Shown: positions 1 through 64,000 of the stretch, in pieces
Numbering within the stretch: position 1 is the first letter of the stretch
Layout of the letters: each line of letters begins with the position of its first letter
NCBI GenBank assembly: GCA_900766555.1
Contig: CAAFVR010000008.1
Span: 1-64,000 of the forward strand
Direction of reading: 5' to 3'
Length of the DNA: 64,000 nucleotides
Source: Helicobacteraceae bacterium
GTDB taxonomy: Bacteria > Campylobacterota > Campylobacteria > Campylobacterales > Helicobacteraceae
Translations under genes and position numbers: made by a program
Notes under the pieces: generated by a model
Seen by the model: the letters and a program-made list of their open reading frames with translations, nothing else
Databases searched by the model: none
Told to the model about the DNA's origin: nothing

Positions 1-108
1 AAAAAACCCCCCCCCCCCCCCCCCCCGGACAACAAACAACAGAAAAGAAGACGGCAAAAAGAGATATTGGTAAAAGAGGTATTGACGGAAGAGCTTAAAT
101 AAAATCAT
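1..108 (-). CDS. 5' end of a truncated minus-strand ORF that contains a poly-G run (poly-Gly), candidate phase-variable gene
   Basis: ATG at 108..106 on the minus strand gives MILFKLFRQYLFYQYLFLPSSFLLFVVRGGGGGGG... and runs off the window edge. It overlaps the pseI stop by a few codons. Not in the ORF track because there is no stop inside the window. Confidence 0.3.
   Translation of the reverse strand, partial: MILFKLFRQYLFYQYLFLPSSFLLFVVRGGGGGGFF
7..26. repeat. homopolymeric C20 tract (G20 on the minus strand)
   Basis: 20 consecutive C at positions 7–26. Campylobacter G/C homopolymers of 8 nt or more are hypermutable contingency tracts (established knowledge). Confidence 0.9.
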
Positions 109-1123
109 CCCTAAAAAGTGGCTTTCCAAAGTCTAGATCCTTTGTGGCTCTTTTGCCGATTGCTTCTTTTAGAAAACGCGGGTGCAATCCGGCATTTGGG
201 CGAAAACTCCCGATATTTTCGCGCGTTAGAAATTCACCCTTTTTGATCGGCGCTTTTATAAAAAGTGAACGTCCAAAATTCCTGCCCTTTATTTTTATAT
301 CTTCGCTTTCTTGCAGAGCGCTTTCTCCAAGCGCCAAAGTGGCATTTTTGATATCAAGTGCTAGTTGTTTAAATTCAATCGGATCTAGGCTAAAGCTAGC
401 ATCAAGTCCGCCCAAAGATTTATCCAAAATAAAATGCTTTTCTATCATTTGCGCGCCCAATGTTGTGGCCATAATCGCGCACAAATTGCTAGTCGTATGA
501 TCGCTAAGGCCAACTTTTATGTTCACATTTTTATTTTTATTTTTGCCTAGATCAGACAGTGATTTTAAGCGATTTATATTTGCCAATTTTATTGGAGCTG
601 GATAACTGCTTGTGCAAAGCAACAGCGTAATATCTTTGCATCCAGCACTTATGCAAGCATCAAGGGCTTCTTCTATTTCACTTTTTATAGCTATGCCAGT
701 TGATAAAATCATTGGCTTTTTTGTACTCGCAACGCTATAAATAAATTCGCAATCTAGTATTTCAAAACTAGCAATTTTATACATCGGGCAATCTAGACTC
801 TCAAGCAGATCTAGAGCATTAAGAGAAAAAGGCGAACTAAAAAGCACGATATCAATATCCCTTGCGGCATTAAATAAATCTCTATGCCAAGCAAATGGTA
901 GCGCGCCCTCTTTGTATATATCATGCAAATATCGCTCATCCCAAAGCTCTGTATTTTTGATCTTAAATATCTCAGATCTAACAGGCAGAGTTAGGCAATC
1001 TGGGGTATATGTCTGGATCTTAACTGAATTTGCCAATGCCTCTTTTGCGGCCTTTATGGTCTTTATGGCGATTTCTAAACTATTGTTATGATTGGCGCTA
1101 ATTTCAGCTACTAAATTTTTCAT
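95..1123 (-). CDS. pseI: pseudaminic acid synthase (NeuB family)
   Basis: 342 aa with a NeuB/PseI-type fold. Sits in a cluster with pseH, pseG and pseF. Confidence 0.8.
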   Translation of the reverse strand: MKNLVAEISANHNNSLEIAIKTIKAAKEALANSVKIQTYTPDCLTLPVRSEIFKIKNTELWDERYLHDIYKEGALPFAWHRDLFNAARDIDIVLFSSPFSLNALDLLESLDCPMYKIASFEILDCEFIYSVASTKKPMILSTGIAIKSEIEEALDACISAGCKDITLLLCTSSYPAPIKLANINRLKSLSDLGKNKNKNVNIKVGLSDHTTSNLCAIMATTLGAQMIEKHFILDKSLGGLDASFSLDPIEFKQLALDIKNATLALGESALQESEDIKIKGRNFGRSLFIKAPIKKGEFLTRENIGSFRPNAGLHPRFLKEAIGKRATKDLDFGKPLFRDDFI

Positions 1124-1613
1124 AAACCATTATCTCTTTTGTCAAATTTGGCATTTTTTTAAAGCCGCGCTTTGCATAAAGCGCTATTGCTCTAGTATTT
1201 TTGGCATAAACTTCAAGGCGCAATTTTTGCATATTAAAAATGCTAAATGTTATAAATTCTAGCGATTCTAAAATGACTTCGCCCAAGCTTTTATTTGGCA
1301 TTTTAATTTTAGAAAAGGGATTTTTATACAGCCCGCCGATGGCGCAATCTGATGGATATTTCAGCTCAAAACTACATACGCCAAGTAAATTTTGCGAAAT
1401 ATATGCGCCATAAAAACAGACTCTTTTGTATTGCTCCAAACGCTCTATGAAATCAAAATGTTGCTCTGTTGAAATCAGATCTTTATTGTACATTTGCAAG
1501 CGCACAGAATCGTGATTTCTGCAGGCTAGAATTTCTAACAGTTCAATCTTGCTAAGTGCCGTAAAATTGCGCAAAATAACTTTGCCAAATGTAATTTCAG
1601 ATGGGAAAATCAT
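1104..1613 (-). CDS. pseH: GNAT N-acetyltransferase, PseH-like
   Basis: 169 aa GNAT-like protein between pseG and pseI, overlapping the pseI start. Confidence 0.7.
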   Translation of the reverse strand: MIFPSEITFGKVILRNFTALSKIELLEILACRNHDSVRLQMYNKDLISTEQHFDFIERLEQYKRVCFYGAYISQNLLGVCSFELKYPSDCAIGGLYKNPFSKIKMPNKSLGEVILESLEFITFSIFNMQKLRLEVYAKNTRAIALYAKRGFKKMPNLTKEIMVYEKFSS

Positions 1614-3185: not shown

Positions 3186-3188
3186 ATG

Positions 3189-3887: not shown

Positions 3888-3912
3888 AAAATATCCTATT
3901 TTTGCCTTAAAA

Positions 3913-3929: not shown

Positions 3930-3944
3930 ATCGCTTAACTGAGA

Positions 3945-4469
3945 TCAGTAAGGTTTGCAGGCGCGCCACATTTCACGAAAGCTTGAATTAATTTTGCTAG
4001 CTAGCTTTGCATTATCCGTAAAATATAAGATCTCATAATTATTTGTAAAAGCATTTTTGCTCCAATTTGCAGATCCAAAGGCTATTTTTGAGCCATCAAT
4101 TATTAAAAGCTTTTGATGCATAATTCCAGAAATATTGCCAGATCCGATCCCCCTTAATACACAAGTATTGATATTTCTAATTGCGCTTAAATTCCCGATA
4201 GTTGAGAATTTGCTATCAAGCTGGCTTTTGTCATATATTATGCGCACTTTTACGCCCTGTTTTGCGGCCTCACGAATCGACTTTGCGATATCTTTATGAG
4301 TGAAACTATATATTGCAATATCTACGCTATTTTTGGCATTTTTTATGGAACTTTTAAGTTCTTTTAATGCCTGTTTATTATCATATGGGAGTACAAAAAC
4401 GGCCTCTTTTGCAAAAATTTGCGATGCTAAAAAGATGCCAAAAAGCGCGCCCTTCAAAAATGTTGCCAA
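3945..4469 (-). CDS. nucT: phospholipase-D family nuclease (Nuc/NucT-like), secreted
   Basis: 174 aa with a signal peptide and the HKD motif HQKLLIIDGSKIAFGSANWS. Synteny with the poly-E protein and gmk matches H. pylori HP0323–HP0321. Confidence 0.7.
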   Translation of the reverse strand: MATFLKGALFGIFLASQIFAKEAVFVLPYDNKQALKELKSSIKNAKNSVDIAIYSFTHKDIAKSIREAAKQGVKVRIIYDKSQLDSKFSTIGNLSAIRNINTCVLRGIGSGNISGIMHQKLLIIDGSKIAFGSANWSKNAFTNNYEILYFTDNAKLASKINSSFREMWRACKPY

Positions 4470-4521
4470 TAAATTACCTCAGATATTTTGGATATTATAA
4501 CCGCAAAAGTTTGGGCGCGTT

Positions 4522-9836: not shown

Positions 9837-11047
9837 GAAAATAATCCATAAATAATTGCAGAAATTGTCACAAAGCCAAAAAATGTAACAAAAGTATTGC
9901 TGTAGATGCGATTTTTATATCTAGCCATGGCTGGCACTTTGACTATCGCAAACATCGGCATGAGAAATAAAATTCCAGCAATTATTGGCCCACCAAAACT
10001 TTCGATTATTCCTAAAATGCTTGGATTTTTAATGGCCACAAGCCATATCACGATGATAAAAAATATAGCGCTATTTGCCTTAGCTTTTTTACTAAGCGGG
10101 CTGCGTTTTGTCCTAAAAATACCGACTAATCCTTCTCTAGCGCCCAAATAATGTCCAATAAAACTTGAAGCGATGGCCAAAAATGCAATAAGCGGCCCAA
10201 GATATGAAATCCAAGGATTACTAAATTTATTTGCAAGATATGAAAGTATTGATATATTTTGACTTTTAGCCAGCGCTAGATCCGATGGACTAAGCGATAA
10301 CACGCAGCTAAATACAAAAAACATGATAAAAAATACCAAAATAGTAGATGTCTGTTTTGTGATTTTCTCCAAATTTGCCTCAGCTTTTTGAAAATCTCCA
10401 TATTTCGCGCGAAGCGAGAGTACAAGCGAAGAAATAGCTGGCAAATGATTGAATGAAAAAACAAGCACTGGAATGCTAATCCAAAGTGTTACAAAAAAAT
10501 CGCCAGCACTTGGGAATTCCGAAATGATCGATAAGTTCCAATGTGGTATCAAAAAAAGCGACATTCCAAATAAGATAACAGCCAACGGATATGTCAAAAA
10601 GCTCATGATTTTAAACATAAATGATTCGTTTAAAAGCATTATCCCAACTAGCAAAAGCACTAAAATTAGGCTTAAAATTACGCGATTTGGCTGCTCAAAA
10701 CCGAGCTGATTTATGATAAATGAATCTGCCGTATTTGTGATTCCATTGCCATAAATAAGCAAGATTGGAAAAATAGAGAAAAAATACAAAATCGTTATAA
10801 CTCTCCCCGCGCCAGATCCGAAGTGTTCATCAACAACATGCGTAATGTCAGAAAATTTCTGCTTTGATGACAATATAAAAAAGCCAAATCCACGATGCGC
10901 AAAATACGTCATAGGGCCAATTATCACAGCCATAACCACAAGTGGCCAAAAGCCAGCCAACCCCGCATTAATGGGCAAAAACAAAATGCCAGCGCCAACT
11001 GCCGTGCCAAAAAGGCTAACAATCCAAAGGAGATTAAATCTACTCAT
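9833..11047 (-). CDS. sdaC: serine transporter (HAAAP family)
   Basis: 404 aa polytopic membrane protein coupled to sdaA. Confidence 0.8.
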
Positions 11048-11107
11048 ACTTACCTTTAATGTTAATGTAGAATGTCACATTTTATTAAAAAACTGAGGTG
11101 TTGGGGC

Positions 11108-11821
11108 ATGAAGCTGTGCATTGCGTTGAATTCTGCGTCTAGATCCGATGATTTGGTAATTTTAAAAGCCCTAGCTAGCAATTTAAGCCAAGATGATATA
11201 TCGCAACTCTACATCAAAATTGGCTTGCAGGGTTTTATACGCGATGGCAAAGATGCACTTTTGGATGTGAGAAAATATTTGCCAAATGCCAAAATATTTT
11301 TAGATCTAAAGCTTTATGACATACCAAATACGATGAGCGAGGCGCTAGGCTTTTGCGCAGATTTAGGCGTAGATTTGCTGACTTTGCACGCAAGTGCTGG
11401 GAGAGTGGCGCTTGAGGCCTGCGCTAATGCTGCTAGTAAAATGCAAATTCGGCCGCTTATTTTTGGCGTTAGCGCTCTAACATCTTTTGATGATGCCGCT
11501 TTTTATGAAATTTATAATGATTCTATTTCGAATTCTGCCTCAAAATTGGCTAGCCTTTGCTTTAGATCCGGACTAGATGGCGCTGTTTGTTCAAGTTTTG
11601 AAAGCAAGCAAATTAAAGATATCACAAGTCCTAATTTTTTAACATTATGTCCTGGGATCCGCCCCTTTGGAGAAAGTGCAAATGACCAAAAACGCGTTGC
11701 TAATCTTGAATTTTGCGCACAAAATGACGTAGATTTTGTAGTAATTGGTAGGCCCATTTATGAAAGCAAAGATCCATCCAAAACAACGCAAAAAATCCTA
11801 GATAAGATGCGTCAATTATGA
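11108..11821 (+). CDS. pyrF: orotidine-5'-phosphate decarboxylase
   Basis: DLKLYDIPNT and VIGRPIY motifs. Start set at the internal MKLCIALN; the ORF track begins at 11072. Confidence 0.8.
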   Translation: MKLCIALNSASRSDDLVILKALASNLSQDDISQLYIKIGLQGFIRDGKDALLDVRKYLPNAKIFLDLKLYDIPNTMSEALGFCADLGVDLLTLHASAGRVALEACANAASKMQIRPLIFGVSALTSFDDAAFYEIYNDSISNSASKLASLCFRSGLDGAVCSSFESKQIKDITSPNFLTLCPGIRPFGESANDQKRVANLEFCAQNDVDFVVIGRPIYESKDPSKTTQKILDKMRQL

Positions 11822-12648
11822 TAATACTGCGCACTAGAAATGAGCTGAAAGAATTTTGCAAAAAAAATTCTGACATTGGTTTTGTACCAACTATGGGCGC
11901 GCTGCACGCGGGACATGAGGCATTAATTAAAAGATCTGTGAGCGAAAATAACATAACAATTGTGAGCATTTTTGTAAATCCCACACAGTTTTTGCCGCAT
12001 GAAGATTTTAATAAATATCCTAGATCGCTTGAACTTGATGCAAAAATTTGCGAGCAAAATAAAGTGGACGCAATATTTGCTCCGGAAATAGATCAAATGT
12101 ATGAAAATACAGAATCTTTTAAAATCATTCCGCCATCATTTCTGACATCTGTTTTTGAGGGCGCGCTTAGGCCTTCGCATTTTGATGGCGTATGTCTAAT
12201 AATAATAAAGCTTTTAAATCTAATAAGGCCCAAAAAAGCGTATTTTGGTAAAAAAGATGCGCAACAATTGCTAATTTTGCAGCACATGGCCAAAGAATTT
12301 TTTATAGATACACAAATTATTCCTTGTGAAATAGTGCGAGATAGCAATAATTTAGCGCTAAGCTCAAGAAATATATATCTAAGCGAAAAGTCAAAAATAA
12401 AGGCCCTTCAATTATCGCGCGCTTTATTTGCTCTAAAAAATACCTATATTTCAGGCGAAAAAGATACAAAAAAGCTCCTAGAAATTGGTAAAAATGAGCT
12501 AAAAAATATTGATTTAGATTATTTTGAATTAATAGATATGGATCTACAAAAAGTGTTAGTTGCTTCAAAAAATACGATCGCAATAATTGCTGGGAAAATA
12601 AAAGATGATCCCAAATCTCCTAGATTGTTAGACAATATATGGCTGTAA
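11818..12648 (+). CDS. panC: pantoate--beta-alanine ligase
   Basis: GFVPTMGALHAGHEALI motif. Confidence 0.9.
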   Translation: MIILRTRNELKEFCKKNSDIGFVPTMGALHAGHEALIKRSVSENNITIVSIFVNPTQFLPHEDFNKYPRSLELDAKICEQNKVDAIFAPEIDQMYENTESFKIIPPSFLTSVFEGALRPSHFDGVCLIIIKLLNLIRPKKAYFGKKDAQQLLILQHMAKEFFIDTQIIPCEIVRDSNNLALSSRNIYLSEKSKIKALQLSRALFALKNTYISGEKDTKKLLEIGKNELKNIDLDYFELIDMDLQKVLVASKNTIAIIAGKIKDDPKSPRLLDNIWL

Positions 12649-14659: not shown

Positions 14660-14725
14660 ACATTTAACTTGATTTCAAACCAAAAATGCTTTAAAATGCA
14701 TCTCTAGCTTTGCTAGATCGGATCT

Positions 14726-14816
14726 GGACCGGTGGGTGAGTTGGCTTAAACCACGTCCCTGCTAAGGACGCGTAGTCGCAAGATTACCGAGGGTTCGAAT
14801 CCCTCCCTGTCCGCCA
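14726..14816 (+). tRNA. tRNA-Ser (anticodon GCT)
   Basis: 91 nt ending in CCA. Anticodon arm CGTCC-CTGCTAA-GGACG, long variable arm, T-arm GAGGG-TTCGAAT-CCCTC. One C·U mismatch in the acceptor stem (5/68). Confidence 0.8.
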
Positions 14817-16763: not shown

Positions 16764-18053
16764 ATGGCATATATAGAACTCGAAAAAATCTTTAAAGATG
16801 AATTTAGCAATGCTGATTTTACCAACTATATTTCGAAGTTGAAATATAGTGAGGGCACTATCAAATCGGATCTAGCAACCTTTATAGCTCCAAATATTTT
16901 TATAGAAAATTGGATTAAAACTAAATTTCACAAAAAAATTGCCCTGATATTACAAACGCATCTAAATATCACACCAGAAATTAAAATAATCTCTGAAATA
17001 AATAAAAAGGGCGTTAAAAGTATCAAACAAATTGTGCATAAGGCCGGATCTAGCCTAAATCCTAGCTTTATTTTCAGCTCTTTTGTGGTGGGTAAATCAA
17101 ATGAATTTGCTTATAAAATCGCTCAAGCGGTGGCTAGTGATCAAAGCATTGCTTATAATCCTGTACTTTTCTATGGAAAAACTGGGCTTGGTAAAACTCA
17201 TCTATTAAATGCTATAGGTAATGTCGCTAAAAATAATGATAAAAATATAATTTATATAACTTCTGAGCAATTTTTAAATGACTTTATCTTGCATTTGCAA
17301 AACAATAGCACGCAAAAATTCCGTGAAAAATACAGATCTTGTGATTATTTGCTAATTGATGACATACAATTTTTTGGTGGAAAACAACAGGTTCAAGAAG
17401 AATTTTTTCACACATTTAATGAATTAGTCTCAAAAAATAAACAAATAATATTAACTTCTGATAAAAATGTAAGTCAAATCGCAGGGCTTGAAATGCGACT
17501 TAAATCTCGTTTCAACGGCGGGTTAAATGTTGATATAAAACCACCAGAACTTGATACAAAAATTAAGATAATAAAGCAAAAATGCGTATTAAATCACATA
17601 CAAATAGATGCTGAAATTATTGAATTTATAGCTACAAATGTGGGCGAAAATATACGAGAAATTGAGGGTTTAATAATAAAATTAAATGCTCAAAGTTCGA
17701 TACTTGGCACTCCAATTACAAAAAGCATGGCAGAAAATGCAATTAGAGATGACAAAAGAGCTGTGACTAAAAATATAAGCGTTGAGAAAATAATTGCACT
17801 TGTAGCTCATGAATTAAATGTAAAACCAAGTGAAATAGCCTCAAAAAATAAAAATAAAGATTTAACAAAAGCAAGATACATTGCCATATATCTATGTCGG
17901 ATCTTAATACCAAATTCAATGTCAATGATAGCCGCGCAATTTAATATGAAAAATCACAGCTCAATTAGCAAAGCTTTTAAAACAATAAATGAAAAAATAA
18001 TCCAAGATAGAAGCTTGAAATTAATAATAGATGAACTCAAAAATAAAATATAG
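16764..18053 (+). CDS. dnaA: chromosomal replication initiator DnaA
   Basis: AAA+ motifs (GKTGLGKTHLL, LLIDDIQF) and a C-terminal DnaA-box-binding domain. Confidence 0.95.
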   Translation: MAYIELEKIFKDEFSNADFTNYISKLKYSEGTIKSDLATFIAPNIFIENWIKTKFHKKIALILQTHLNITPEIKIISEINKKGVKSIKQIVHKAGSSLNPSFIFSSFVVGKSNEFAYKIAQAVASDQSIAYNPVLFYGKTGLGKTHLLNAIGNVAKNNDKNIIYITSEQFLNDFILHLQNNSTQKFREKYRSCDYLLIDDIQFFGGKQQVQEEFFHTFNELVSKNKQIILTSDKNVSQIAGLEMRLKSRFNGGLNVDIKPPELDTKIKIIKQKCVLNHIQIDAEIIEFIATNVGENIREIEGLIIKLNAQSSILGTPITKSMAENAIRDDKRAVTKNISVEKIIALVAHELNVKPSEIASKNKNKDLTKARYIAIYLCRILIPNSMSMIAAQFNMKNHSSISKAFKTINEKIIQDRSLKLIIDELKNKI

Positions 18054-18221
18054 TAACGATATATTCACAATTATTGTGAATTATAAAAATGCAAAAATGC
18101 CAAAAAATAGAGCTTTATAAGGCATAAAAATCTAATTTCACAAAAGCACAGTCCATACTAATACTTATAAGATTAAAACTATCAATTTGTTATAATAAAA
18201 GTTCGCAAAACAAGGAACATT
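18054..18221. promoter_or_regulatory. candidate oriC (DnaA boxes plus an AT-rich DNA-unwinding element) in the dnaA–dnaN intergenic region
   Basis: Inverted pair of ATTCACA boxes at 18062–18082 (atATTCACAattatTGTGAATta) and a third box TTTCACA at about 18135. Followed by a very AT-rich 18160–18210 stretch. Epsilonproteobacterial DnaA boxes are TCATTCACA-like. Confidence 0.55.
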
Positions 18222-19313
18222 ATGAAATTCACAATCAAGAAAATTGACTTTGAAATTGCTCTCAATAATCTTCAATCTTTTCTAGATAAAAAAGATCATC
18301 AAATAACTTCAAATGTACATTTTGAGATAAATGATGAAATATTAAATCTAAAAGCAACAGATGGTGAAATAGGAATTGAAACAAAAATAAAAATATCAAA
18401 TGTTGAATCTGATATAAAAGAAATAACAGTAAATGGTAGAGAAATATTAAAAACTATAAGAGTTTTAAGGGATGAAAATATACAAATTGAAATAGAAGAT
18501 AAAAATTTAAAAATTTCTCAAGGTTCTTTTATTTCAAAAATGCAAATTTTTAATCCAGATGAATATCCGATAAATGAATATCCTAAAAATATAAATGAAA
18601 ATAGCGAGATAAAATCATTAAATATTGATAGTAAAAATTTCATAAAAAATATTAAAAAAATAATACCAGCTATAAAAATAGATAATCAAAAAATGTCTCT
18701 AAATGGTGCTCTTTTAGAAATACGCGATTACAATTTCAACTTTGTATCAACAGATACAAAAAGACTAGCAATAATTAGAGAAAAAATACAAACAACAGAA
18801 ACTCTTTATATGATAATACATAAGAGAGCATTAAGTGAAATAATAAAATTATTTAATAATAAACCTGATACAAAAATTTATAAATCAGAATCCAAATTAA
18901 TAATAGTAAGTGAAGAAACAACATTTTTTACAAAAATAATTACTGAAAAATTCCCAGAATTTGAAAGAATAATCCCAAAAGAATTTAAAATCTCACTAAA
19001 TTTACCTAAAACAAAATTATTAGAAATAATAAATAGGATTAGATCCGCATCAGAAATAATAAAATTGACATTTAAAAAAGAAAAAATCGAATTTGAAAGC
19101 GTGGTTCAAAATTCAAGTCGTAAATCAAAAGAAGAATTAGCTTTTGATACAAAATTAGAAGAAGATTTTGAAATTTGCTTTAATTCAAATTTTATAATCG
19201 ATTATATTAATCATACAAATACTGATGTAATTGAATTTTTATCTAATGATCCAAATAAACCTTTTTTACTTAAAAGTGACAATTTTCAAACAATAATTCT
19301 TCCCGTAATCTAA
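18222..19313 (+). CDS. dnaN: DNA polymerase III beta sliding clamp
   Basis: 363 aa directly after dnaA. Confidence 0.85.
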   Translation: MKFTIKKIDFEIALNNLQSFLDKKDHQITSNVHFEINDEILNLKATDGEIGIETKIKISNVESDIKEITVNGREILKTIRVLRDENIQIEIEDKNLKISQGSFISKMQIFNPDEYPINEYPKNINENSEIKSLNIDSKNFIKNIKKIIPAIKIDNQKMSLNGALLEIRDYNFNFVSTDTKRLAIIREKIQTTETLYMIIHKRALSEIIKLFNNKPDTKIYKSESKLIIVSEETTFFTKIITEKFPEFERIIPKEFKISLNLPKTKLLEIINRIRSASEIIKLTFKKEKIEFESVVQNSSRKSKEELAFDTKLEEDFEICFNSNFIIDYINHTNTDVIEFLSNDPNKPFLLKSDNFQTIILPVI

Positions 19314-19321
19314 GGACTTAA

Positions 19322-21634
19322 ATGAACAAATACAATGCCAGTAATATAAAAGTATTAAAAGGTCTAGAGGCCGTTAGAAAACGCCCTGGCATGTATATAG
19401 GTGATACAAATATACATGGCTTACATCATATGATATATGAAGTTGTAGATAACTCAATTGATGAAGCTATGGCAGGTTTTTGTAACAAAATAAATATCAA
19501 AATTACAAAAAATAACAGTGTAATAATCACAGATAATGGAAGAGGTATACCAGTAGATATACATGAGACAGAAAATTTACCAGCTGCAACAGTAGTTTTA
19601 ACAACATTACATGCTGGAGGTAAATTTGATAAAGATACCTATAAAGTCTCAGGCGGATTACATGGAGTTGGCGTATCTGTCGTAAATGCTCTTAGTAAAA
19701 AATTGATTATGACTATCAAAAAAAATGGAAATATCTATACTCAAGAATTTCAAAAAGGCATACCGCAAAATAATCTTGAAATAATTGGTAAAACAAAAGA
19801 AAGCGGCACTCAAATTGAGTTCATCCCAGATGATGAAATAATGGAAGTTATAGATTTTGAATTTGACACACTTTCAAAAAGATTTAAAGAGATGGCTTAT
19901 TTAAATCCAAAAATAACAATCTTTTTTGAGGATGAACGAAATTTAAAAAATGAAACATATCATTTTGATAATGGAATATCGCAATTTGTAAATGACATTA
20001 ATAAAAAAGAAAAAATCACAAAAATAATAAATTTTAAAGCCAATGATGAAGATACAGAAGTTGAAATAGCTCTGCTTTATAACACAGGATATGATGAAAA
20101 ACTCTTAAGCTTTGTAAATAATATCAATACAAAAGATGGTGGAACTCACGAAACAGGCTTTAGATCCGGTCTGAGTCGCGCTATTTTAAATTACATTGAG
20201 CAAAATGCAAATGCTAGAGAAAAAGATGCAAAAATAATTGGTGATGATGTAAGAGAAGGTCTTTGTGCCATCGTATCGATTAAAATTATGGAACCACAAT
20301 TTGAGGGTCAAACAAAAGCAAAGCTTGGAAGCTCATTTGTAAAACCAATAATTCAGCGTCTAACATATGAAAAAATATCTAAATTTTTAGAAGAAAATCC
20401 AATTGATGCCCGCGCAATAATTACAAAAGTATTGCAAGCCTCAAAAGGCAGAGAAGCTGCTAAAAAAGCAAGAGAATTAGTGCGTAAAAATGACAAAATG
20501 TTTGTCGGCACATTGCCAGGTAAATTAGCAGATTGTCAAAGTAAAAATCCTGAAGAATCAGAAATATACCTAGTTGAGGGTGACTCAGCTGGTGGATCCG
20601 CTAAACAAGGACGTGACAGAGCCTTTCAAGCGATATTGCCACTAAGAGGTAAAATTTTAAATGTTGAAAAATCAAATATCAATAAAATTTTAAAATCTGA
20701 TGAAATAAAAAATATGATCACTGCCTTTGGTTGCGGCATCGGTAATGAATTTAATATTGATAGATTGCGATATCACAAAATAATTATTATGACGGATGCT
20801 GATGTTGATGGTAGTCATATACAAACACTTTTGATGACATTTTTTTATAGATATTTGAAACCACTTGTCACAAATGGGCATGTTTATATTGCTCAACCAC
20901 CTTTATATCGTTTCAAAAAAGGTAAAAAGGAAATATATTTAAAAGATGACAAAATTTTAAATGAATATCTAATATTAAATGGAATTGAAAATTTCGAAAT
21001 TAACGGCATTGGTAATAATGAATTAATTGAAATTTTAAAATATATTTCTCATTACAGAAATTTATTAAAAGAATTGCAAAAAAAATATCCATTAATAGAA
21101 TTAATAGATTTTCTAGTTAAAAATCAACATCTTTTATCTCTTAATTTTGAAGATATTTTTAATAATATGAAAGATTATTTGATTTCAAAAGATTTAAATA
21201 TTTTAAGTCAAAATAAAGGCTCAGATTATATTTCTTTTTATATCCAGACTAAAACGGGATTAATGCAAGCCTCAATTGATAAAGATTTATTTGAAAATAA
21301 TTTCTTCAAAGAAGCCTGCATTACTTATAACAAAATTTTAGAACGAGATTTAGATATTTTAAATCAAAAAGATCCAATAAATTTTTTAGAAGAAGTCGAA
21401 GAATCTGCAAAAAAAGGCGCTTATATTCAGCGTTATAAAGGTCTTGGTGAAATGAATGCGGACCAACTTTGGGAAACAACTATGAATATATCAAATAGAA
21501 CATTACTCAAAGTCAAAATGGAAGATGAAGAAGATGCGGATTCAATTTTTACGCTTTTTATGGGTGATGAAGTTGAGCCAAGGCGAGCTTATATACAAGA
21601 AAATGCTAAAAATGTAAAAAATCTAGATGTTTAG
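19322..21634 (+). CDS. gyrB: DNA gyrase subunit B
   Basis: GHKL ATPase and TOPRIM motifs (LHAGGKFD, EGDSAGGSAKQGRDR). Confidence 0.95.
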   Translation: MNKYNASNIKVLKGLEAVRKRPGMYIGDTNIHGLHHMIYEVVDNSIDEAMAGFCNKINIKITKNNSVIITDNGRGIPVDIHETENLPAATVVLTTLHAGGKFDKDTYKVSGGLHGVGVSVVNALSKKLIMTIKKNGNIYTQEFQKGIPQNNLEIIGKTKESGTQIEFIPDDEIMEVIDFEFDTLSKRFKEMAYLNPKITIFFEDERNLKNETYHFDNGISQFVNDINKKEKITKIINFKANDEDTEVEIALLYNTGYDEKLLSFVNNINTKDGGTHETGFRSGLSRAILNYIEQNANAREKDAKIIGDDVREGLCAIVSIKIMEPQFEGQTKAKLGSSFVKPIIQRLTYEKISKFLEENPIDARAIITKVLQASKGREAAKKARELVRKNDKMFVGTLPGKLADCQSKNPEESEIYLVEGDSAGGSAKQGRDRAFQAILPLRGKILNVEKSNINKILKSDEIKNMITAFGCGIGNEFNIDRLRYHKIIIMTDADVDGSHIQTLLMTFFYRYLKPLVTNGHVYIAQPPLYRFKKGKKEIYLKDDKILNEYLILNGIENFEINGIGNNELIEILKYISHYRNLLKELQKKYPLIELIDFLVKNQHLLSLNFEDIFNNMKDYLISKDLNILSQNKGSDYISFYIQTKTGLMQASIDKDLFENNFFKEACITYNKILERDLDILNQKDPINFLEEVEESAKKGAYIQRYKGLGEMNADQLWETTMNISNRTLLKVKMEDEEDADSIFTLFMGDEVEPRRAYIQENAKNVKNLDV

Positions 21635-23074: not shown

Positions 23075-23391
23075 GAATTTTCTTTTGTTAAATAATAAAT
23101 TATTGCATTTGAATCTAATATTTCATTAAGTCTAATGGCCAAGTTTTTTTCATATACAATGACTTCACCTTTACCAATTGTGCGTTCATTTATATTTATA
23201 TCAACGCTTTCTCCAGCTGGCTTATTTAGATTTATAACAGACCCTATTTTGAGATTTAAAATGTCTTTTAAAAGCAAATTTGTATTACCTAAATTGGCGC
23301 TAAAAGATACTTCAACATCTAATAAATTTTGATATTTATTAGTCATTTGCTTTAAATATTCGGTGATATTTGGCTCTATTTTCTCACTCAT
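23071..23391 (-). CDS. fliN: SpoA-domain protein, FliN-like flagellar switch component
   Basis: 106 aa. LLLKDILNLKIGSVINLNKPAGESVDININERTIGKGEVIV matches the FliN/SpoA C-ring fold. Confidence 0.65.
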   Translation of the reverse strand: MSEKIEPNITEYLKQMTNKYQNLLDVEVSFSANLGNTNLLLKDILNLKIGSVINLNKPAGESVDININERTIGKGEVIVYEKNLAIRLNEILDSNAIIYYLTKENS

Positions 23392-23399
23392 TAAAATCC

Positions 23400-34144: not shown

Positions 34145-34255
34145 GGGTACTAGATCTGATCTAGTGAACAGATTTGGCAAACAAATTTGGGGGGTGGCAG
34201 ATATCAGATCGGATCTAGCAGAAGGTCTAAGAAGCGAATTTGGAAGTGAGGCTGA

Positions 34256-54806: not shown

Positions 54807-54815
54807 AGGATTAAC

Positions 54816-57635: not shown

Positions 57636-58441
57636 ATATGAAAATTGCAAAAACAGCCATAATAGAGCCGGGCGCTCAAATTGATGATGGCGTAGAGATT
57701 GGGCATTTTTGCGTGATCGGATCTGGCGTTAGCATAGCTTCTGGCACAAAAGTCATGAATAATGTAACGATATTAGGCGATACGATAATTGGCAAAAATA
57801 ATGTGATTTTTCCAAATGCGACTCTTGGCACGCAGCCTCAGGATTTGAAATACGAGGGCGAAAAGGTCGAGCTAGTAATTGGTGATAACAACATAATACG
57901 TGAGCATTGCATGTTTAACCCCGGCACAAAGGGCGGCATTTCTCAAACAATTATTGGAAATAGCAATCTTTTTATGACATTTTCGCATGTAGCACATGAT
58001 TGCGTGATCGGAGATAATTGCATCTTTGCAAATAATGCCACCTTGGGCGGGCATGTGGAAGTTGGAAATTATGTAAATTTTGGCGGGCTATCAGCGGCAC
58101 ATCAATTTGTAAAGATCGGATCTGGCGCCATGATCGCAGCTGGCTCAATACTTTTTCAAGATGCGCCACCATATGTTATGTGCGATGGTCAGAGGGCGGC
58201 TATACGGGGATTAAATAGACATCGGATGCGATTGCTTTTTGATAGAGAATGCATAGATCTGATCGCTTCGTTATATAGGCGCATTTTTAGTAAAGATGAC
58301 CTAATGACAAATAATGCTAAAAGGGAGCTTGAGGCATTAAAAGCGCAAGAAAGCAGCAATATTCATTCTGTTTTGAAAGAGATTTGTGAGTTTGTTATAG
58401 CTTCAAAGCGGGGAATCCCCATTAATAAAGGACAAATATGA
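57632..58441 (+). CDS. lpxA: UDP-N-acetylglucosamine acyltransferase
   Basis: Left-handed beta-helix hexapeptide repeats. Position between fabZ and clpX. Confidence 0.85.
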
Positions 58442-59748
58442 GTGAGATAACATGCAATTTTTGCGGCAAAAAGGGCGAGTCAAAGGACTTTATAAATGGT
58501 AATGAAGCTGGATCTGATGCCCATATCTGCGAAAGTTGTATGCGCGTTATGCACAAGCGCTTTGTAAAACGCAGCTTGCTTGAGCGCGATACTCGATATT
58601 TGGAGCGCTACACGAGTAATAGCGAAGATGCCGGAAGTGATTTTGAAATGATACAGCTACCAACTCCAAAGGAGCTAAAGGCTATTTTGGATGATTATGT
58701 GATAGGGCAAGATTATGCAAAAAAGGTCTTTTCTGTCGCGATATATAATCATTATAAACGCATAACAAGCCGCAAAGATCATTTGGATCCAGCATATAAT
58801 GATGAAGTTGAGCTTGAGAAATCAAATATACTTTTTATTGGACCTACCGGATCTGGCAAAACATTGCTAGCTCAAACGATAGCAAAGCATCTAAATTTGC
58901 CAATTGTAATTTCAGATGCGACAAGCCTAACTGAGGCTGGTTATGTTGGCGAAGATGTAGAAAATATACTTACGCGATTATTAGGAGCAGCAAATAATAA
59001 TGTCGAATTAGCGCAAAAGGGCATTGTTTTTATTGATGAGATTGATAAAATTTCGCGCCTATCAGAAAATCGCTCAATCACGCGTGATGTCTCAGGCGAG
59101 GGTGTGCAGCAAGCACTTTTAAAATTAATTGAAGGAAGTGTTGTAAATGTAAGTCCAAGTGGCGGTAGGCGACATCCTGGACAGCAATTTATACCGCTTG
59201 ATACTCGCGATATTTTGTTCATTTGCGGGGGCGCATTTGATGGCATAACAGATATTATAAAGCGGCGTCTTGGCTCAAATGCGCTAGGATTTGGACTAGA
59301 TGATAAAAAGCGTATAGATTTGGAGAATAAATCAGATCTATTGCAAAAAATTGAAGTAGATGATCTAATAAGCTATGGCATGATACCAGAGCTTATGGGG
59401 CGACTGCATGTATTGGCCACATTGGAGGCCATTACCAAAGAGGCGATGGTGCGCATTATGAAAGAGCCGAAAAATTCGGTGATAAAGCAGTTTCAAAAGA
59501 TTTTTGAAATGGATGGGGTGAAGTTGATTTTTGAAGATGGCGCAATTAATGAGATAGCAGATCTAGCTATCAAGCGACAAACGGGCGCGAGAGGATTAAG
59601 GAGCATAATGGAGAATATTTTTGTAGATCTGATGTTTGATATTGAATCTATGCGAGATTATGAAGTTGTGATAACAGCAGATGTAATAGCTAAAAATCAA
59701 AAGCCCATTTTAATTAAAAGAACAAAGGATGTAGATGCTACTAGATAA
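58438..59748 (+). CDS. clpX: ATP-dependent Clp protease ATP-binding subunit ClpX
   Basis: Zn-binding CxxC N-terminus, [12 protein letters not shown]-loop. Confidence 0.95.
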
Positions 59749-61582: not shown

Positions 61583-63675
61583 TCAAAACCCTAGAAAATA
61601 TGGTGCAAAAACTTGAGCTTTGTAAATCGCATTTTGAGATCTTAGGTTTCATAAAAACCACAGATTGGGGAGCTATTTTTAAGGTAAATGAGCAAAAAAT
61701 AACTCTAGCATCTCTTTTATGTGAGAAAATATTTACTTGCATTATTTCAAAAGGTAGATTGCCTGAGCGCGAATTTCTTTTAATTTTTGGTGCATTTTAT
61801 GGGGTCAAAATAAGTGATACTAGATTTAGCGCGATAAAAGAATTTGCAAATTCAAATTTCAAAGCTTCAGATAATGATAATGAAAAGATTTTGCTGCTAG
61901 ATCTGATATTTTTATGTGATCTTTTGGAGGGGATTTGCGCCAAAGAGGCGCTAGAACGCTATATCAAGCAGATCTTATTGCTTAATATTAATGCGCTTGA
62001 AGTGCAAAAATCACATGTATTTTTGCTCACTTTTTTTGACATTTTTAAGATTGAATTTTCTATATTTGAGAGCATTTTAAAAAGTATTTATGCTGATTTT
62101 AGCACGCTAGATCCAAAAATTAAGCGCAATGTTTTTAATGTAACTTTGCAAGTATTTTGGAATGTTGCGCATTTTTATAATGATAAAAGATGGCTTAATT
62201 TTTATGACATTTGGCTTAGTATTTTTTATGCGGAATTGTCGCGCGATCTGGATTTAGCAATATTTTTGCACTTTTTTATTTATCATATTTGTGGCAATAG
62301 TTTTGAGACGCAAGAGCAGTGGAAAAAATTTAATATTGATGTGACGCTAAAGGCTAGTTCATTTTATGCGCTAGATAAAATAAGTATAAATGACTTTACA
62401 AAAAGTGCAAAAAATGAAAATGACAAGATAAAAGTTGGCTTTTTGCGCGATAGATTAGTGCTAAATTCGACATTCAAAGTTGAATATAGCTTTTTAAAAA
62501 TGCTGGCTAAAACAAATAAATTTGAGATATCAATATATCTTTTAAGCCTGCTTGAAAAAAGCGATAATGATAAAAAATTGCTCCAAGATTTATTAGAACT
62601 TGGAGTAAGTATTTTTGATGTCGGATCTGGCATGTTGCATAAACAAAATGGCGAGATCAAATTGCATGAGGCGCAAAATAGCTTGTTATATTTTAATTCG
62701 CATTTGCAAAAGGCTAGGATTTTGGTCCAAGAAATTGCAAAAAATGATCTTGATTTATTGATTAGTCCAAATAATGGATATGGGATTTGTGATTATGTGT
62801 TATCACAGCGCGTTTGCAAAAAGCAGGTCTTTTGGAGTCATGGCAATTTTGTCTATGATGCACTTTTTATAGATATGAAAATTACGCATATTTGTGGAAA
62901 TATGCAAAAAATTATCCATCATGGAGTCGAATTTTACGGCATACCGGTCAAAATGGATGATAAGTTTTATAACCCACAAATAAATAAAAATATCATAGAT
63001 AGCATAAGAAATTCGTATAAAGCCACAAAAATAGCAGGCAGTATCGGCAGGCTTATAAAGTTAGATAGTGCAGAATTTTTGCAAGCGTTAGTTTTGATAC
63101 TTGATGCAGATAAAGAATTAATTTTCCTAGCTTGCGGAGGGGGGAATGTCTCAAATTTGAAAGATAAAATTGCAAAAATATGCCAAGAAATGAACCTTCA
63201 GACAAGAGATATTTTATCTCGTATATTTTTCCCAGGTTTTGTAGATAGCGGAATTTATGGTCATGTTATTGATTTTTGGCTTGATAGTTTTCCACTAAAA
63301 CATGGCGAATCGCGCATTGAATTTGTAGCTAAAAATAAGCTTAGCCTAATCAGATCTGATGAGACAAAAGAAAATAGAGAAAATCGCCTAAGCGAGTGGC
63401 TAAAAATTCATGAGGCAGAAATAAAAGTAGCTTTTTATGCAAATGATGCAAAAAATGACGGATTTTTTAGCTCTTTTGAAGAGTTCTGTAATTTTGTGCG
63501 TTTTAATCATGATTTAGTGGCTTTTGATGTGAGCGATTATGTAGTAAAAGCGCAAAATGCTCTAAAATTTGATAAAAGAACAGAGCAAAAGCATCTTTTA
63601 GTAGGTGAGATCATTAAGGCTGTAAACAACTCCATTAGAGAGAATTTAGGATTGCAATTTTTCTTAAAATTATGA
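61579..63675 (+). CDS. large hypothetical protein, C-terminal region possibly GT41-like glycosyltransferase
   Basis: 698 aa. C-terminal ...LIFLACGGGNVSNLKDKI...HVIDFWLDSFPLKHGESRIE loosely resembles the Rossmann half of O-GlcNAc-transferase-like (GT41) enzymes. Weak. Confidence 0.4.
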   Translation: MIKTLENMVQKLELCKSHFEILGFIKTTDWGAIFKVNEQKITLASLLCEKIFTCIISKGRLPEREFLLIFGAFYGVKISDTRFSAIKEFANSNFKASDNDNEKILLLDLIFLCDLLEGICAKEALERYIKQILLLNINALEVQKSHVFLLTFFDIFKIEFSIFESILKSIYADFSTLDPKIKRNVFNVTLQVFWNVAHFYNDKRWLNFYDIWLSIFYAELSRDLDLAIFLHFFIYHICGNSFETQEQWKKFNIDVTLKASSFYALDKISINDFTKSAKNENDKIKVGFLRDRLVLNSTFKVEYSFLKMLAKTNKFEISIYLLSLLEKSDNDKKLLQDLLELGVSIFDVGSGMLHKQNGEIKLHEAQNSLLYFNSHLQKARILVQEIAKNDLDLLISPNNGYGICDYVLSQRVCKKQVFWSHGNFVYDALFIDMKITHICGNMQKIIHHGVEFYGIPVKMDDKFYNPQINKNIIDSIRNSYKATKIAGSIGRLIKLDSAEFLQALVLILDADKELIFLACGGGNVSNLKDKIAKICQEMNLQTRDILSRIFFPGFVDSGIYGHVIDFWLDSFPLKHGESRIEFVAKNKLSLIRSDETKENRENRLSEWLKIHEAEIKVAFYANDAKNDGFFSSFEEFCNFVRFNHDLVAFDVSDYVVKAQNALKFDKRTEQKHLLVGEIIKAVNNSIRENLGLQFFLKL

Positions 63676-64000
63676 GAGTATTAATTCTTTGTGCGGCAAA
63701 TCCAGCGCTAAATCCAAGGCCTTCGCGCTTTATCGATTTTTTTAAAAAAAAGCATCAAGTTAGCGCAATGGGCATTAATTCAAGTGAGATTAACGGCGTT
63801 GAGGTCATAAATTACAGCGCATATAAAAAGAGATCTTTATTTGGCGAGATAGCGCTATATTTCCGTGCTTTTATGGGAAAATATTGGCATATGATTTATA
63901 CGCCAAATCGCTTGGAAATCGCTAGATTTCTAAAAAGGCGCGATTTTGACTTAATAATTTGTCATGATTTAGTGCTTTTGCCAATCGTGCTTGAATTTAA
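63672..64000 (+). CDS. 5' part of an ORF that runs off the window (MRVLILCAANPALNPRPSRF...)
   Basis: ATGA overlap with the preceding gene. No stop before the window end. Confidence 0.3.
   Translation, partial: MRVLILCAANPALNPRPSRFIDFFKKKHQVSAMGINSSEINGVEVINYSAYKKRSLFGEIALYFRAFMGKYWHMIYTPNRLEIARFLKRRDFDLIICHDLVLLPIVLEF

Follow-up and report, generated by a model that had tools for sequence, protein, structure and literature searches.

Among described systems, the closest to the word reported here are HIP1 (GCGATCGC) of cyanobacteria, the uptake sequences DUS (Neisseriaceae) and USS (Pasteurellaceae), the RAATTY tag of Campylobacter jejuni and the BstYI/XhoII-type restriction-modification systems. 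HIP1 is of unexplained origin, with recent work suggesting a methylation-dependent boost of transformation: methylated HIP1 raises cyanobacterial transformation by up to more than 100-fold, and HIP1 co-varies with a DNA-uptake apparatus (bioRxiv 10.1101/2024.09.10.611283; 10.64898/2026.06.24.733823). DUS occurs as dialects among the Neisseriaceae (PMC3630211). C. jejuni imports only DNA with a CtsM-methylated R-AATT-Y site, while for H. pylori indiscriminate uptake of foreign (lambda) DNA is reported (both PMC8468864); dependence of uptake on a tag is therefore no genus-wide feature of Helicobacter. RGATCY-specific m6A methyltransferases exist, and in A. baumannii A118 transformation is influenced by a BstYI-family m6A RGATCY system (PMC10287943).

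The window, that is, the whole 64-kb stretch of DNA analysed here, belongs to an uncultured gut Helicobacter sp. MAG (GCA_032579835.1), and the Campylobacter-like framing of the first-pass annotation was wrong. The core of that annotation, a GATC-core word hyperabundant in the window, proved real, and several of its details were corrected. GATC was counted 311 times rather than the estimated 240 or so, and 207 of these sites (67%, not about 80%) were in RGATCY context. The octamer TCGGATCT (22 copies) and its complement AGATCCGA (17) gave the same total of 39 as before, and TCGGATCTGG with its complement gave 14. The RGATCY core was indeed enriched, but YRGATCYR describes the unit better; GGATCC showed no enrichment (0.9x). 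YRGATCYR has 143 sites in the 64-kb window, a density of 2.2 per kb, and copies lie in 51 of the 62 genes; the preferred asymmetric form is aTCGGATCTrGC. The word family includes CGGATCTA/TAGATCCG (44 copies), CAGATCTA/TAGATCTG (30) and CAGATCCG/CGGATCTG (26), together with the symmetric words TAGATCTA (15), CAGATCTG (11) and CGGATCCG (0), the first two of which were enriched as well. Copies of ATCGGATCTGGC that had been placed at 39591, 52431, 57711 and 58121 start at 39593, 52429, 57716 and 58115, and the one at 62621 reads GTCGGATCTGGC. The sequence flanking the copies was unique; no mobile element is therefore involved. The palindromic core, symmetric Y-R flanks and unique surroundings suit a site bound by a protein rather than a repeat. 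Individual sites are collected in Table 1.

Table 1. Sites of the word in the window and features discussed in the text.
Feature	Position	Strand	Remark
YRGATCYR (RGATCY n=207, GATC n=311)	1..64000	.	143 dispersed copies
YRGATCYR starts, part 1	380,806,973,1655,2479,4070,4139,4589,4635,4877,5231,5429,5456,6065,6631,6985,7786,9053,9531,9594,9714,10277,10813,11140,11301,11563,12539,13063,13207,13459,14049,14194,14719,15120,15772,16553,16867,17045,19040		
YRGATCYR starts, part 2	20161,20593,21952,22180,22197,22448,22703,22922,23492,24294,25355,26048,26441,26903,27191,28321,28603,28927,29109,29158,29461,29648,29914,30301,30409,30646,31197,31312,31923,31951,32073,32634,33043,33332,33435,33756,34151,34210,35878,36194,36421,36584,37619,38080,38234,38504,38804,39117,39175,39574,39595		
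YRGATCYR starts, part 3	40200,40823,41945,42429,43211,43401,44277,44741,44915,45259,45758,46402,46789,47012,47232,48341,48366,49266,49583,49677,49884,49947,50424,51389,51668,51939,52431,53235,53490,53569,55103,55412,56187,56471,56573,57059,57718,58117,58254,58509,58784,58848,59333,59558,59624,59781,60503,60555,61264,61898,62108,62622,63351		
Intergenic double site CTAGATCGGATCTGG (GATCNGATC)	14713..14727	+	overlaps first two bases of tRNA-Ser(GCT)
tRNA-Ser(GCT)	14726-14816		
CGGATCTA in dnaA	16867..16874	+	another dnaA copy starts at 17045
15-bp perfect palindrome CTAGATCTGATCTAG	34150..34164	.	two overlapping words, intergenic, between convergent genes
Intergenic double site CAGATCGGATCTAG	34205..34218	.	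inverted partner of 34150-34164; predicted hairpin between the two, 13-bp stem, z=-2.2
CGGATCTG in LpxA hexapeptide repeat	57718..57725	+	IGSG by amino-acid change; relatives IGAD, IGAG, IGDG, IGEG
LpxA second copy	58117..58124	+	ATC GGA TCT GGC = IGSG; relatives V/IGDG or IGDA
CGGATCTG in ClpX Walker A motif (TGSGK)	58848..58855	+	codons rewritten, protein same
CAGATCTA in clpX	59558..59565	+	synonymous Leu codon choice: GAT CTA; relatives GAT TTG, GAC TTA or GAG CTT

Enrichment was measured against two nulls, an order-3 Markov model and a synonymous-codon shuffle that keeps the amino-acid sequence and the per-gene codon usage. Against the Markov model TCGGATCT was enriched 18x and CCAGATCCGA 119x. 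Against the shuffle, enrichment was 2.2x for RGATCY (z=16), 4.3x for YRGATCYR (z=24), 7.8x for CGGATCT, 8.8x for TCGGATCT and 11x for TCGGATCTGG, well above the two-fold ceiling that the first-pass annotation had set for a spurious signal in such a shuffle. It was still 4.1x in the low-GC block that holds the dnaA copy at 16867. Furthermore, codon choice depended on context. The Gly-Ser dipeptide was encoded GGA-TCT in 28 of 86 cases (about 3% expected), and Asp-Pro pairs were written GAT-CCG in 54%, the share of CCG after other codons being 16%. After GAT, Leu was CTG in 19% of cases versus 3% after other T-ending codons; genome-wide, CTA or CTG made up 50% versus 17%. The first-pass argument from GGC as a rare Gly codon failed, because GGC is the commonest (47% of Gly codons), and the conclusion that the force acts on DNA and not on protein rests on other grounds: the shuffle, the context-dependent codons, the occurrence of copies on either strand as well as between genes, and the lack of the word in the orthologues of relatives. 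Favoured dipeptides (DL, GS, RS) or a codon-pair bias might yield such a word as a protein-level or translational artefact. Two of the three reading frames do hold most of the sites, and the outer GGC of the 12-mer is that commonest codon. The signal was nevertheless lost on synonymous shuffling, the word lay on coding and template strands (46 vs 29), intergenic copies reached about seven times expectation, and orthologues with the same dipeptides use other codons. We give this reading next to no credence, and the shuffle and the orthologue codon comparison refute it.

The word was then set against relatives, each sampled at one 21-kb locus. Synonymously permitted YRGATCYR positions were filled in 139 of 242 cases (57%) here and in 0-12% in nine other Helicobacter, and such positions numbered 3.9 per kb of coding sequence here versus 1.2-2.7 in those nine. 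A sister word, YRGAWTCYR, occurs in H. cinaedi, H. bilis, H. fennelliae and Helicobacter sp. CLO-3. It keeps the half-sites of YRGATCYR, adds one central base, and was 1.9-3.0x enriched and 48-72% occupied. This sister dialect is new here. Its signal was weak in the four closest relatives, and H. mustelae and 15 other Campylobacterota loci lacked both words; AAATTT was modestly over-represented (1.4-1.6x) in Campylobacter-like loci. The recovered strains of the window organism were all at least 99.8% identical, most of them at least 99.97%. YRGATCYR is a real, DNA-level, lineage-specific word near saturation, with a sister dialect. The dialects were reciprocally depleted: GAWTC stood at 0.65x in the window and GATC at 0.23-0.78x in the sister-word lineages, where RGATCY in H. 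cinaedi was found 0 times against 15 expected. Depletion of GATC and RGATCY in relatives is what restriction targets would show, and RGATCY is the BstYI/XhoII recognition site. The word might be a by-product of restriction-modification conflict, a methylated decoy or a cleavage site shaping import length in a BstYI/BglII-type system, a possibility consistent with the A. baumannii example and with the selective shortage of the BamHI site GGATCC in the enriched set (9 vs 20 expected; CGGATCCG 0 vs 9). We regard it as very unlikely. Restriction targets are usually avoided, not enriched four-fold to 57% occupancy; in H. pylori, strong under-representation affects 22% of type II targets and modest over-representation a single one (PMC10423294); and the outer Y-R positions lie outside every known RGATCY enzyme site.

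Within the window the density of YRGATCYR was even, and the word carries on beyond it (2.1 and 1.2 per kb in the 10 kb at each end). Copies were present on both strands, in dnaA, gyrB, dnaE and clpX, and in intergenic DNA (3 sites in 2 kb vs 0.41 expected, P=0.008), all as first described, while the claim of every reading frame was overstated, the G of GATC being at codon position 1 in 82 cases, 2 in 49 and 3 in only 9. The commonest form, CGGATCT, is asymmetric. It was in weak excess on the presumed leading strand (47 vs 30, P about 0.05-0.07), and its orientation tended to flip around dnaA (forward and reverse copies: 8 and 16 on the left, 31 and 22 on the right; P=0.05). A strand-polarised architecture word (Chi-, KOPS- or AIMS-like) guiding recombination or chromosome segregation, which the first-pass annotation had raised, is nevertheless unsupported and highly improbable: core and flanks are palindromic, the symmetric forms are enriched too, and a 61:39 skew is weak beside known polar words and confounded by gene orientation. 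YRGATCYR was also spaced more evenly than random draws from permitted positions (CV 0.82 vs 0.96, P=0.006). Even spacing, Y-R steps at both flanks and the slight leading-strand excess would suit a chromosome-organising or replication site, bound by a nucleoid-associated or SeqA-like protein with help from flexible Y-R steps and selected for regular spacing, and a structural role has been proposed for HIP1 (PMC5861425). We consider this rather improbable, as appreciable selection would be required at each of thousands of sites costly in codons or amino acids, the sister word is clustered in relatives (CV 0.93-1.41), and the model does not account for each lineage depleting the other's word.

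Sites have arisen through synonymous as well as amino-acid changes. When codons spanning the core were aligned with those of relatives, the amino acid differed in 56 of 137 comparisons. Examples of changed protein sequence are LpxA IGDG to IGSG, ClpX EDV to SDL and ClpX TDV to VDL. The ClpX Walker A motif reads ACC GGA TCT GGC in the window and ACA/ACT GGT/GGC AGT/AGC GGx in four relatives, so that its Ser codon switched family from AGY to TCT, which takes at least two substitutions via a non-Ser intermediate. These changes suggest that the force accumulating the word overrides protein sequence. They also bear on methylation-directed biased repair, Elhai's HIP1 model, whereby a methyltransferase would mark the core and mismatch or short-patch repair would favour the word, leaving a functionless mutational by-product. 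The palindromic core looks like a methyltransferase site, altered methyltransferase specificity would readily explain a dialect switch, and the same model was put forward to explain HIP1 and the alternate HIPs, among them the degenerate rCCGGy (PMC4390886). Many sites, however, needed several substitutions, such as the Ser switch. One-step neighbours were undepleted in the window (RGATTY/RAATCY 1.1x, AGATTC/GAATCT 0.9x), with no transition neighbour as a sink and no simple very-short-patch repair signature, which would be RGATTY/RAATCY depletion. H. pylori and Campylobacter are not known to possess mismatch repair of the MutS1/MutL/MutH type. Conservation of HIP1 between genomes likewise spoke against replenishment by neutral repair (PMC5861425). 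We consider biased repair unlikely.

The explanation we prefer, though only tentatively, is a recognition word of a dimeric protein, most likely a methylation-linked self-tag in transformation, accumulated by a DNA-level drive in the manner of HIP1, DUS or CtsM. In its favour stand the enrichment over codon shuffles, the near saturation, the altered protein sequences, the palindromic core on unique flanks, the sister dialect with identical half-sites, the even spacing, and the published precedents of HIP1, CtsM, RGATCY methyltransferases and DUS dialects. YRGATCYR would be a lineage-specific, genome-wide recognition word, a degenerate palindrome of two YRGA half-sites read by a dimeric sequence-specific protein, which most likely is, or cooperates with, an RGATCY-type DNA methyltransferase. 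Once methylated, the word could mark 'self' in natural transformation or recombination. Tagged DNA would be preferentially imported or recombined, so that biased gene conversion (molecular drive) would carry new copies to every position tolerated by protein function. Related enterohepatic Helicobacter would use the same system with half-sites one base wider apart, and the window organism would have switched dialect. We infer the protein reading, the methylation and the transformation bias as the accumulating force. Several observations count against a self-tag: methyltransferase, restriction, competence or uptake genes were absent from the 64-kb window and the 20 kb around it; H. pylori is reported to take up DNA indiscriminately; YRGATCYR is degenerate, unlike the asymmetric, specific uptake sequences of the classical kind; and its even spacing is not mirrored by the sister word. 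High occupancy here and the sister word in related species point, if tentatively, to an undescribed DNA self-tagging system in Helicobacter.

The resemblance to DUS and USS first noted for density and genome-wide spread holds. These too occur at about 1 or more per kb on both strands (PMC3630211, PMC2397512, PMC3458573), within genes at protein-tolerated positions, sometimes altering amino acids, with spacing evener than random and variant dialects in related lineages; one inverted pair here forms a predicted hairpin between convergent genes. DUS and USS are, however, single asymmetric 9-12-mers with a pilus-associated receptor, and the word here is a degenerate palindrome, typical of a dimeric enzyme. 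Helicobacter takes up DNA via the ComB type IV secretion system. BstYI/XhoII-type systems share the specificity of the hexamer, but avoidance is expected of their targets, and the word here is strongly enriched, with an enrichment that takes in the outer Y and R and leaves out GGATCC. The CtsM tag comes from the same bacterial order and likewise sets a 4 bp palindrome between R and Y (R-AATT-Y vs R-GATC-Y); RAATTY is frequent mainly through an AT-rich genome, with a small excess, whereas the word here reaches 2.2x as hexamer, 4.3x as octamer and 57% occupancy. HIP1 is likewise an octameric GATC-core palindrome, dispersed both within and outside coding sequence at densities of 0.3-2.7 per kb (here 2.2). 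It too is lineage-specific, and in related genomes alternate words take its place, some of them degenerate R...Y types (PMC4390886, PMC5861425). Unlike HIP1, the word here belongs to Campylobacterota, is AT-richer and degenerate (Y-R-GATC-Y-R) and excludes GGATCC; its 8-mers reach 4-18x observed/expected versus 15-300x, and its dialects are set apart by the gap between half-sites (0 or 1 nt) rather than by base identity. In form, the word is closer to HIP1 and to the methylated RAATTY of C. jejuni than to classical DUS/USS.

When the k-mers of the window were ranked against an order-3 Markov model, we found that the top-ranked 7- to 12-mers, one poly-C tract aside, were all forms of a single word, with enrichments of 8x for CGGATCT, 18x for TCGGATCT, 119x for CCAGATCCGA and 359x for GCCAGATCCGAT. 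The core of this word is GATC, for which 311 sites were counted, not the ~240 of the first-pass annotation. The excess of RGATCY described there was confirmed, at 207 sites or 67% of all GATC sites instead of the claimed ~80%, and its figure of 39 for the octamer TCGGATCT (n=22) together with the complement AGATCCGA (n=17) was reproduced exactly; TCGGATCTGG and its complement occur 14 times. A logo of all GATC sites in the window carried symmetric information to about ±6 nt and background beyond, with A or G at position -1, C or T at position -2 and the mirror image on the opposite side. Because the logo is symmetric with mirrored R/Y flanks, we defined the unit as YRGATCYR, that is, two YRGA half-sites without a spacer. 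This octamer is present in 143 copies, 46% of all GATC sites in the window, and its half-sites are TAGA, CAGA and CGGA, with TGGA being rare. The word families are CGGATCTA/TAGATCCG (44 copies), CAGATCTA/TAGATCTG (30), CAGATCCG/CGGATCTG (26), TAGATCTA (15) and CAGATCTG (11), and the extension to a 10-12-mer is a minority form (14 of the 143 sites).

A null was generated by permuting synonymous codons within each gene, keeping amino-acid sequence and codon usage. The annotation had staked the motif on an excess of more than 2-fold over such shuffling, and this was found for both RGATCY (2.2x, z=16) and YRGATCYR (4.3x, z=24), with 7.8x, 8.8x and 11x for CGGATCT, TCGGATCT and TCGGATCTGG, respectively. 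YRGATCYR occurs at 2.2 per kb, is spread evenly along the window on both strands and in 51 of 62 genes, and persists for 10 kb past either window end (2.1 and 1.2 per kb), while the negative controls, unrelated low-GC Firmicutes-like MAGs, had 0-0.07 per kb. The proteins permit the word by synonymous codon choice at 242 positions in the window, and 139 of these (57%) are filled.

Two of the three codon phases hold most of the sites, the G of GATC falling on codon position 1 in 82 sites, 2 in 49 and 3 in 9, and of the CGGATCT copies 46 are on the coding and 29 on the template strand. Intergenic DNA holds three YRGATCYR sites where 0.41 would be expected (P=0.008). Gly-Ser is written GGA-TCT in 28 of 86 cases versus ~3% expected from codon usage, and Arg-Ser as AGA-TCT or AGA-TCC in 31 of 68. 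Asp-Pro takes GAT-CCG in 54% of cases, the share of CCG elsewhere being 16%; Leu following GAT is CTA or CTG in 50%, compared with 17% after other T-ending codons; and ATC is strongly over-used for Ile before GGA relative to expectation. The word acts at the DNA level and not at the protein level, and the explanation that it is an artefact of the proteins or of codon pairs is effectively refuted. One argument that the annotation had made for selection on DNA, the repeated use of GGC as a rare Gly codon, was mistaken. GGC is the commonest Gly codon (47%), so the outer GGC of the 12-mer is simply what codon usage gives for IGSG and TGSGK peptides.

We then considered how the copies are arranged. 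Outside the word, the sequences around the copies show no relation to one another; for this reason, and because copies lie inside conserved housekeeping genes, a mobile or repeated element (REP, MITE or tandem repeat) was rejected. Overlapping double sites, GATCNGATC, number 12 in the window compared with ~4 in shuffles (see table). The inverted pair at 34150-34218 recalls the terminator DUS pairs of Neisseria, but has no T-tract. A terminator role for the intergenic copies was rejected, as this pair gives one hairpin with neither a T-tract nor a consensus terminator there. The 143 sites are spaced more evenly than chance (CV 0.82 versus 0.99 for Poisson, P=0.006) and more evenly than random draws from the permitted positions (CV 0.96, P=0.006); even spacing was looked for in the sister word of relatives, described below, and was not found. 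Set beside these two results, a role as a binding site that structures the chromosome appears improbable. Around dnaA, CGGATCT showed a weak orientation bias, with a leading to lagging ratio of 47:30 (Fisher P=0.05), in a single 64-kb window that is small for such a question; the core is palindromic. We give a polar element of chromosome architecture a very low probability.

GGATCC was the sole RGATCY form without enrichment (0.9x against the shuffle null). It was observed 9 times versus 20 expected under half-site independence (P=0.005), and the family CGGATCCG had 0 copies versus 9 expected. An intrinsic rule requiring at least one A half-site was rejected, since GGAWTCC in relatives stood at 14 versus 14.6 expected, and the deficit suggests a separate BamHI-like avoidance. 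A restriction target of the BstYI type would be avoided or at most neutral, whereas RGATCY is enriched and only GGATCC looks avoided; that the word is a by-product of restriction-modification is, in our judgement, very unlikely.

Features of the window and their coordinates. The compositional island comprises dnaA, dnaN and gyrB to the ccs genes.
Feature	Position	Strand	Remark
Poly-C tract, 20 bases	7-26		~11020-12200 in metagenome copies L010/L011/L012; adjoins CST-I-type sialyltransferase gene
PLD-family (PLDc_2) small protein	3945-4469	-	
Compositional island	16764-27667		GC 22-33%
Double site GATCNGATC	2481		
Double site GATCNGATC	4141		
Double site GATCNGATC	14716		
Double site GATCNGATC	34153		
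Double site GATCNGATC	34207		
Double site GATCNGATC	36418		
Double site GATCNGATC	39119		
Double site GATCNGATC	53492		
Double site GATCNGATC	57715		
Double site GATCNGATC	58114		
Double site GATCNGATC	58256		
Double site GATCNGATC	60862		
Double site, full extent	14713-14727		overlaps tRNA start
Double-site pair, full extent	34150-34164 + 34205-34218		inverted, between convergent genes; predicted 13-bp hairpin stem, z=-2.2

An exact-sequence look-up revealed that the window sequence is also contig JAWFSV010000001 of the uncultured 'Helicobacter sp.' MAG GCA_032579835.1 (proteins MDU7692xxx), and it is present in ~20 independent metagenome assemblies (ENA, Logan). Metagenome copies (L001-L006 and L010-L014) were 99.8-100% identical to the window, most of them 99.97-100%, over at most 21 kb, and the recovered population of this organism is nearly clonal. 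Among 5.8 billion sequences the nearest protein to its ClpX was 65% identical, with the best matches all from Helicobacter, indicating a deep lineage of which no other member has been sampled. Coding sequence makes up 97% of the window, which carries housekeeping genes including neuB, flgH, ruvC, fur, dnaA, dnaN, gyrB, ccsBA, hemH, glmS, dnaE, rlmN, queH, fabZ, lpxA, clpX and mreBC, together with one tRNA-Ser, Rfam matching no other RNA gene. DNA methyltransferase, restriction and competence genes were looked for in the 84 kb of window and flanks, and none was found. Only one gene of the window might be connected with DNA uptake, that for the PLDc_2 protein, which resembles the NucT-type nuclease linked to Helicobacter transformation. 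The compositional island has a GC3 down to 0.10 (dnaN), the rest of the window having a GC of 34-43% and a GC3 of ~0.30-0.36. Its origin as a recent foreign, word-free import was rejected, as word enrichment is still 4.1x there. The sialyltransferase gene beside the poly-C tract varies in called length by assembly (328, 392 and 378 aa) in otherwise near-identical strains, and the tract looks like a phase-variable homopolymer switch.

To see how the sites arose, we turned to the rlmN-queH-fabZ-lpxA-clpX-mreB-mreC block, whose synteny is kept in other Helicobacter. YRGATCYR stands at 0.05-0.09 per kb in the four nearest genomes that could be obtained, versus 2.3 in the same block of the window. 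Codon alignment revealed synonymous origins, such as GAT TTA/TTG to GAT CTA in MreB and ClpX. In the Walker A motif of ClpX, ACA GGT AGT GGC has become ACC GGA TCT GGC, a switch of Ser codon family that no single step can make while the residue stays serine. At other sites the amino acid itself was replaced: IGDG/IGAG to IGSG (two occurrences) and VDE to IDL in LpxA, EDV to SDL and TDV to VDL in ClpX, and QLQ to QIQ in MreB. In codons spanning the core, 137 comparisons could be aligned to relatives and 56 of them showed a different amino acid, and permitted positions amount to 3.9 per kb of coding sequence in the window versus 1.2-2.7 in nine other Helicobacter. The word is near saturation and overrides amino-acid sequence, and the force behind it is strong enough to reshape proteins. 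Depletion of the one-step neighbours RGATTY/RAATCY was looked for in the window and not found (1.1x), on which ground a signature of very-short-patch repair was rejected. The undepleted neighbours also count against methyl-directed biased repair as the source of the word, as do the multi-step changes that sites needed and the fact that, to our knowledge, H. pylori and Campylobacter have no MutS1/MutL/MutH-type mismatch repair; we regard this explanation as unlikely.

Relatives were represented by one 21-kb locus each, with crude ORF-based gene calls. Unbiased k-mer ranking of their loci yielded a different word, AGAATCTA/TAGATTCT, with AGAATCTA at 2.4 per kb in Helicobacter sp. CLO-3, 1.6 in H. 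fennelliae, 0.7 in comparison locus L016, 0.06 in the window and 0 in H. mustelae. The GAWTC logo in relatives displayed R at -1 (95% in CLO-3) and Y at -2. Because these flanks match those of the window, we conclude that the sister word is YRGAWTCYR, the same half-sites plus one central base. Against shuffles it was enriched 2.5x in CLO-3 (occupancy of permitted positions 72%), 2.4x in H. fennelliae (48%), 3.0x in H. cinaedi (53%) and 1.9x in H. bilis (49%), and was not enriched in the window (1.3x, z=0.9; 7%). Its density in these four loci (L018, L019, L022 and L023) was 1.8-4 per kb, and it was even denser in the non-coding stretches of relatives. The signal was weak in the four closest relatives, GCA_004368235, ERZ16268248, H. 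anatolicus and GCA_900199585 (RGAWTCY 1.7-2.7x, occupancy 13-24%). Neither word was found in the locus of H. mustelae, a gastric species, and both were absent from 15 other Campylobacterota loci (at least 9 kb; DnaE 35-55% identical), at 0-0.23 per kb. A metagenome scan found no closer relative sharing the window dialect (DnaE at most 55% identity).

Where one word is used, the other is under-represented. GAWTC was depleted in the window (0.65x, z=-4.3), and GATC stood at 0.23-0.78x in GAWTC-dialect lineages, with 16 GATC versus 70 expected and 0 RGATCY versus 15 in H. cinaedi, and 3 RGATCY versus 14 in H. bilis. Collectively, these data showed that the window word is palindromic and lineage-specific, that the two dialects have identical half-sites and differ solely in spacing, and that they avoid each other reciprocally. 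The sister dialect is an addition beyond the finding of the first-pass annotation. In metagenome loci L031-L034 and L036 (GC 29-36%, DnaE ~50% identical, tentatively Campylobacter-like), AAATTT was at 1.4-1.6x over synonymous shuffles (z 7-12) and AAATTTCA/TGAAATTT was enriched 1.6-2.5x, with RGATCY and RGAWTCY depleted; AAATTT is here a form of RAATTY, the CtsM site of C. jejuni.

Half-sites with a set spacing are what dimeric sequence-specific proteins read, and a protein of this kind may therefore read the two half-sites. Spacing shifts of GATC versus GANTC/GAWTC are of a kind that also separates methyltransferase and restriction-enzyme specificities. Biased uptake and recombination would spread the word as a molecular drive, which is the accepted account of USS and DUS and which we favour because thousands of sites of tiny effect are hard to keep by ordinary selection. 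We tentatively propose, as the likeliest of the explanations considered, that the word may be a self-tag linked to methylation, serving transformation or recombination and accumulated by drive; its methylation, its reader and any bias in uptake are all presumptive. This proposal draws on precedents. Methylation of HIP1, a palindromic octamer with a GATC core, raises natural transformation up to >100-fold (10.1101/2024.09.10.611283), and HIP1 co-varies with DNA-uptake genes (10.64898/2026.06.24.733823). C. jejuni, of the same order, takes only DNA with CtsM-methylated R-AATT-Y sites (PMC8468864), and m6A methyltransferases specific for RGATCY are known (PMC10287943). H. pylori imports lambda DNA indiscriminately (PMC8468864), which counts against the generality of a tag and is consistent with neither word occurring in H. 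mustelae. More doubtful is the wider reading that enterohepatic Helicobacter might possess a hitherto unrecognised tag system for self DNA in natural transformation, with a dimeric reader of two YRGA half-sites and probably a methyltransferase. Its dialects, set by half-site spacing (RGAWTCY in H. cinaedi, H. bilis and H. fennelliae, RGATCY in the human-associated lineage of the window), would act as exchange barriers, and through biased uptake or recombination it would have rewritten more than half of the permissible codon contexts and many amino acids genome-wide.

Hyperabundant short words such as DUS, USS and HIP1 are rare, and each has informed the recognition of self versus foreign DNA. 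The genus Helicobacter, a standard example of natural competence, is said to be without an uptake sequence. The finding is unexpected for this genus, and occupancies of 57% in the window and 48-72% in sister-dialect relatives, the culturable H. cinaedi, H. bilis and H. fennelliae among them, change that picture. The culturable relatives make the mechanism directly testable. With genetic tools at hand in a second phylum, the question posed by HIP1 (repair bias, chromosome structure or uptake tag) can now be addressed by experiment, and the switch in spacing that occurred in nature indicates which protein to seek. Gene-flow barriers between gut Helicobacter species are predicted. The word also provides a sequence signature for metagenome binning of these Helicobacter and hints at better transformation. 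We found no mention of RGAWTCY, YRGATCYR or AGAATCTA in the literature searched, an absence that is not proof of novelty, and on over-represented words in Helicobacter that literature offered nothing beyond surveys of overall compositional bias in H. pylori. For a hyperabundant, putative recognition word of an otherwise known kind, the novelty appears to lie in the phylum and in the dialect pair that switches spacing.

The first-pass guess of an uptake-sequence-like system held in part. The window word resembles DUS/USS in its density of 2.2 per kb, its 4-11x excess over codon shuffles, its occurrence on both strands, within and between genes, and its dialects, YRGAWTCYR in H. cinaedi, H. bilis, H. 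fennelliae and CLO-3 versus YRGATCYR in the window. However, DUS/USS have a single asymmetric 9-12-nt consensus, whereas the window word is an eight-letter palindrome, degenerate and with five common variants. With the HIPs it shares a palindromic form of ~8 nucleotides, the rank of top over-represented word and dispersal on unique flanks, and with the CtsM site the R-NNNN-Y palindromic core, 67% of GATC sites being RGATCY. In summary, HIP1 and the alternate HIPs are closest to the window word in form, and the DUS/USS dialects and the CtsM tag would be closest to it in proposed function.
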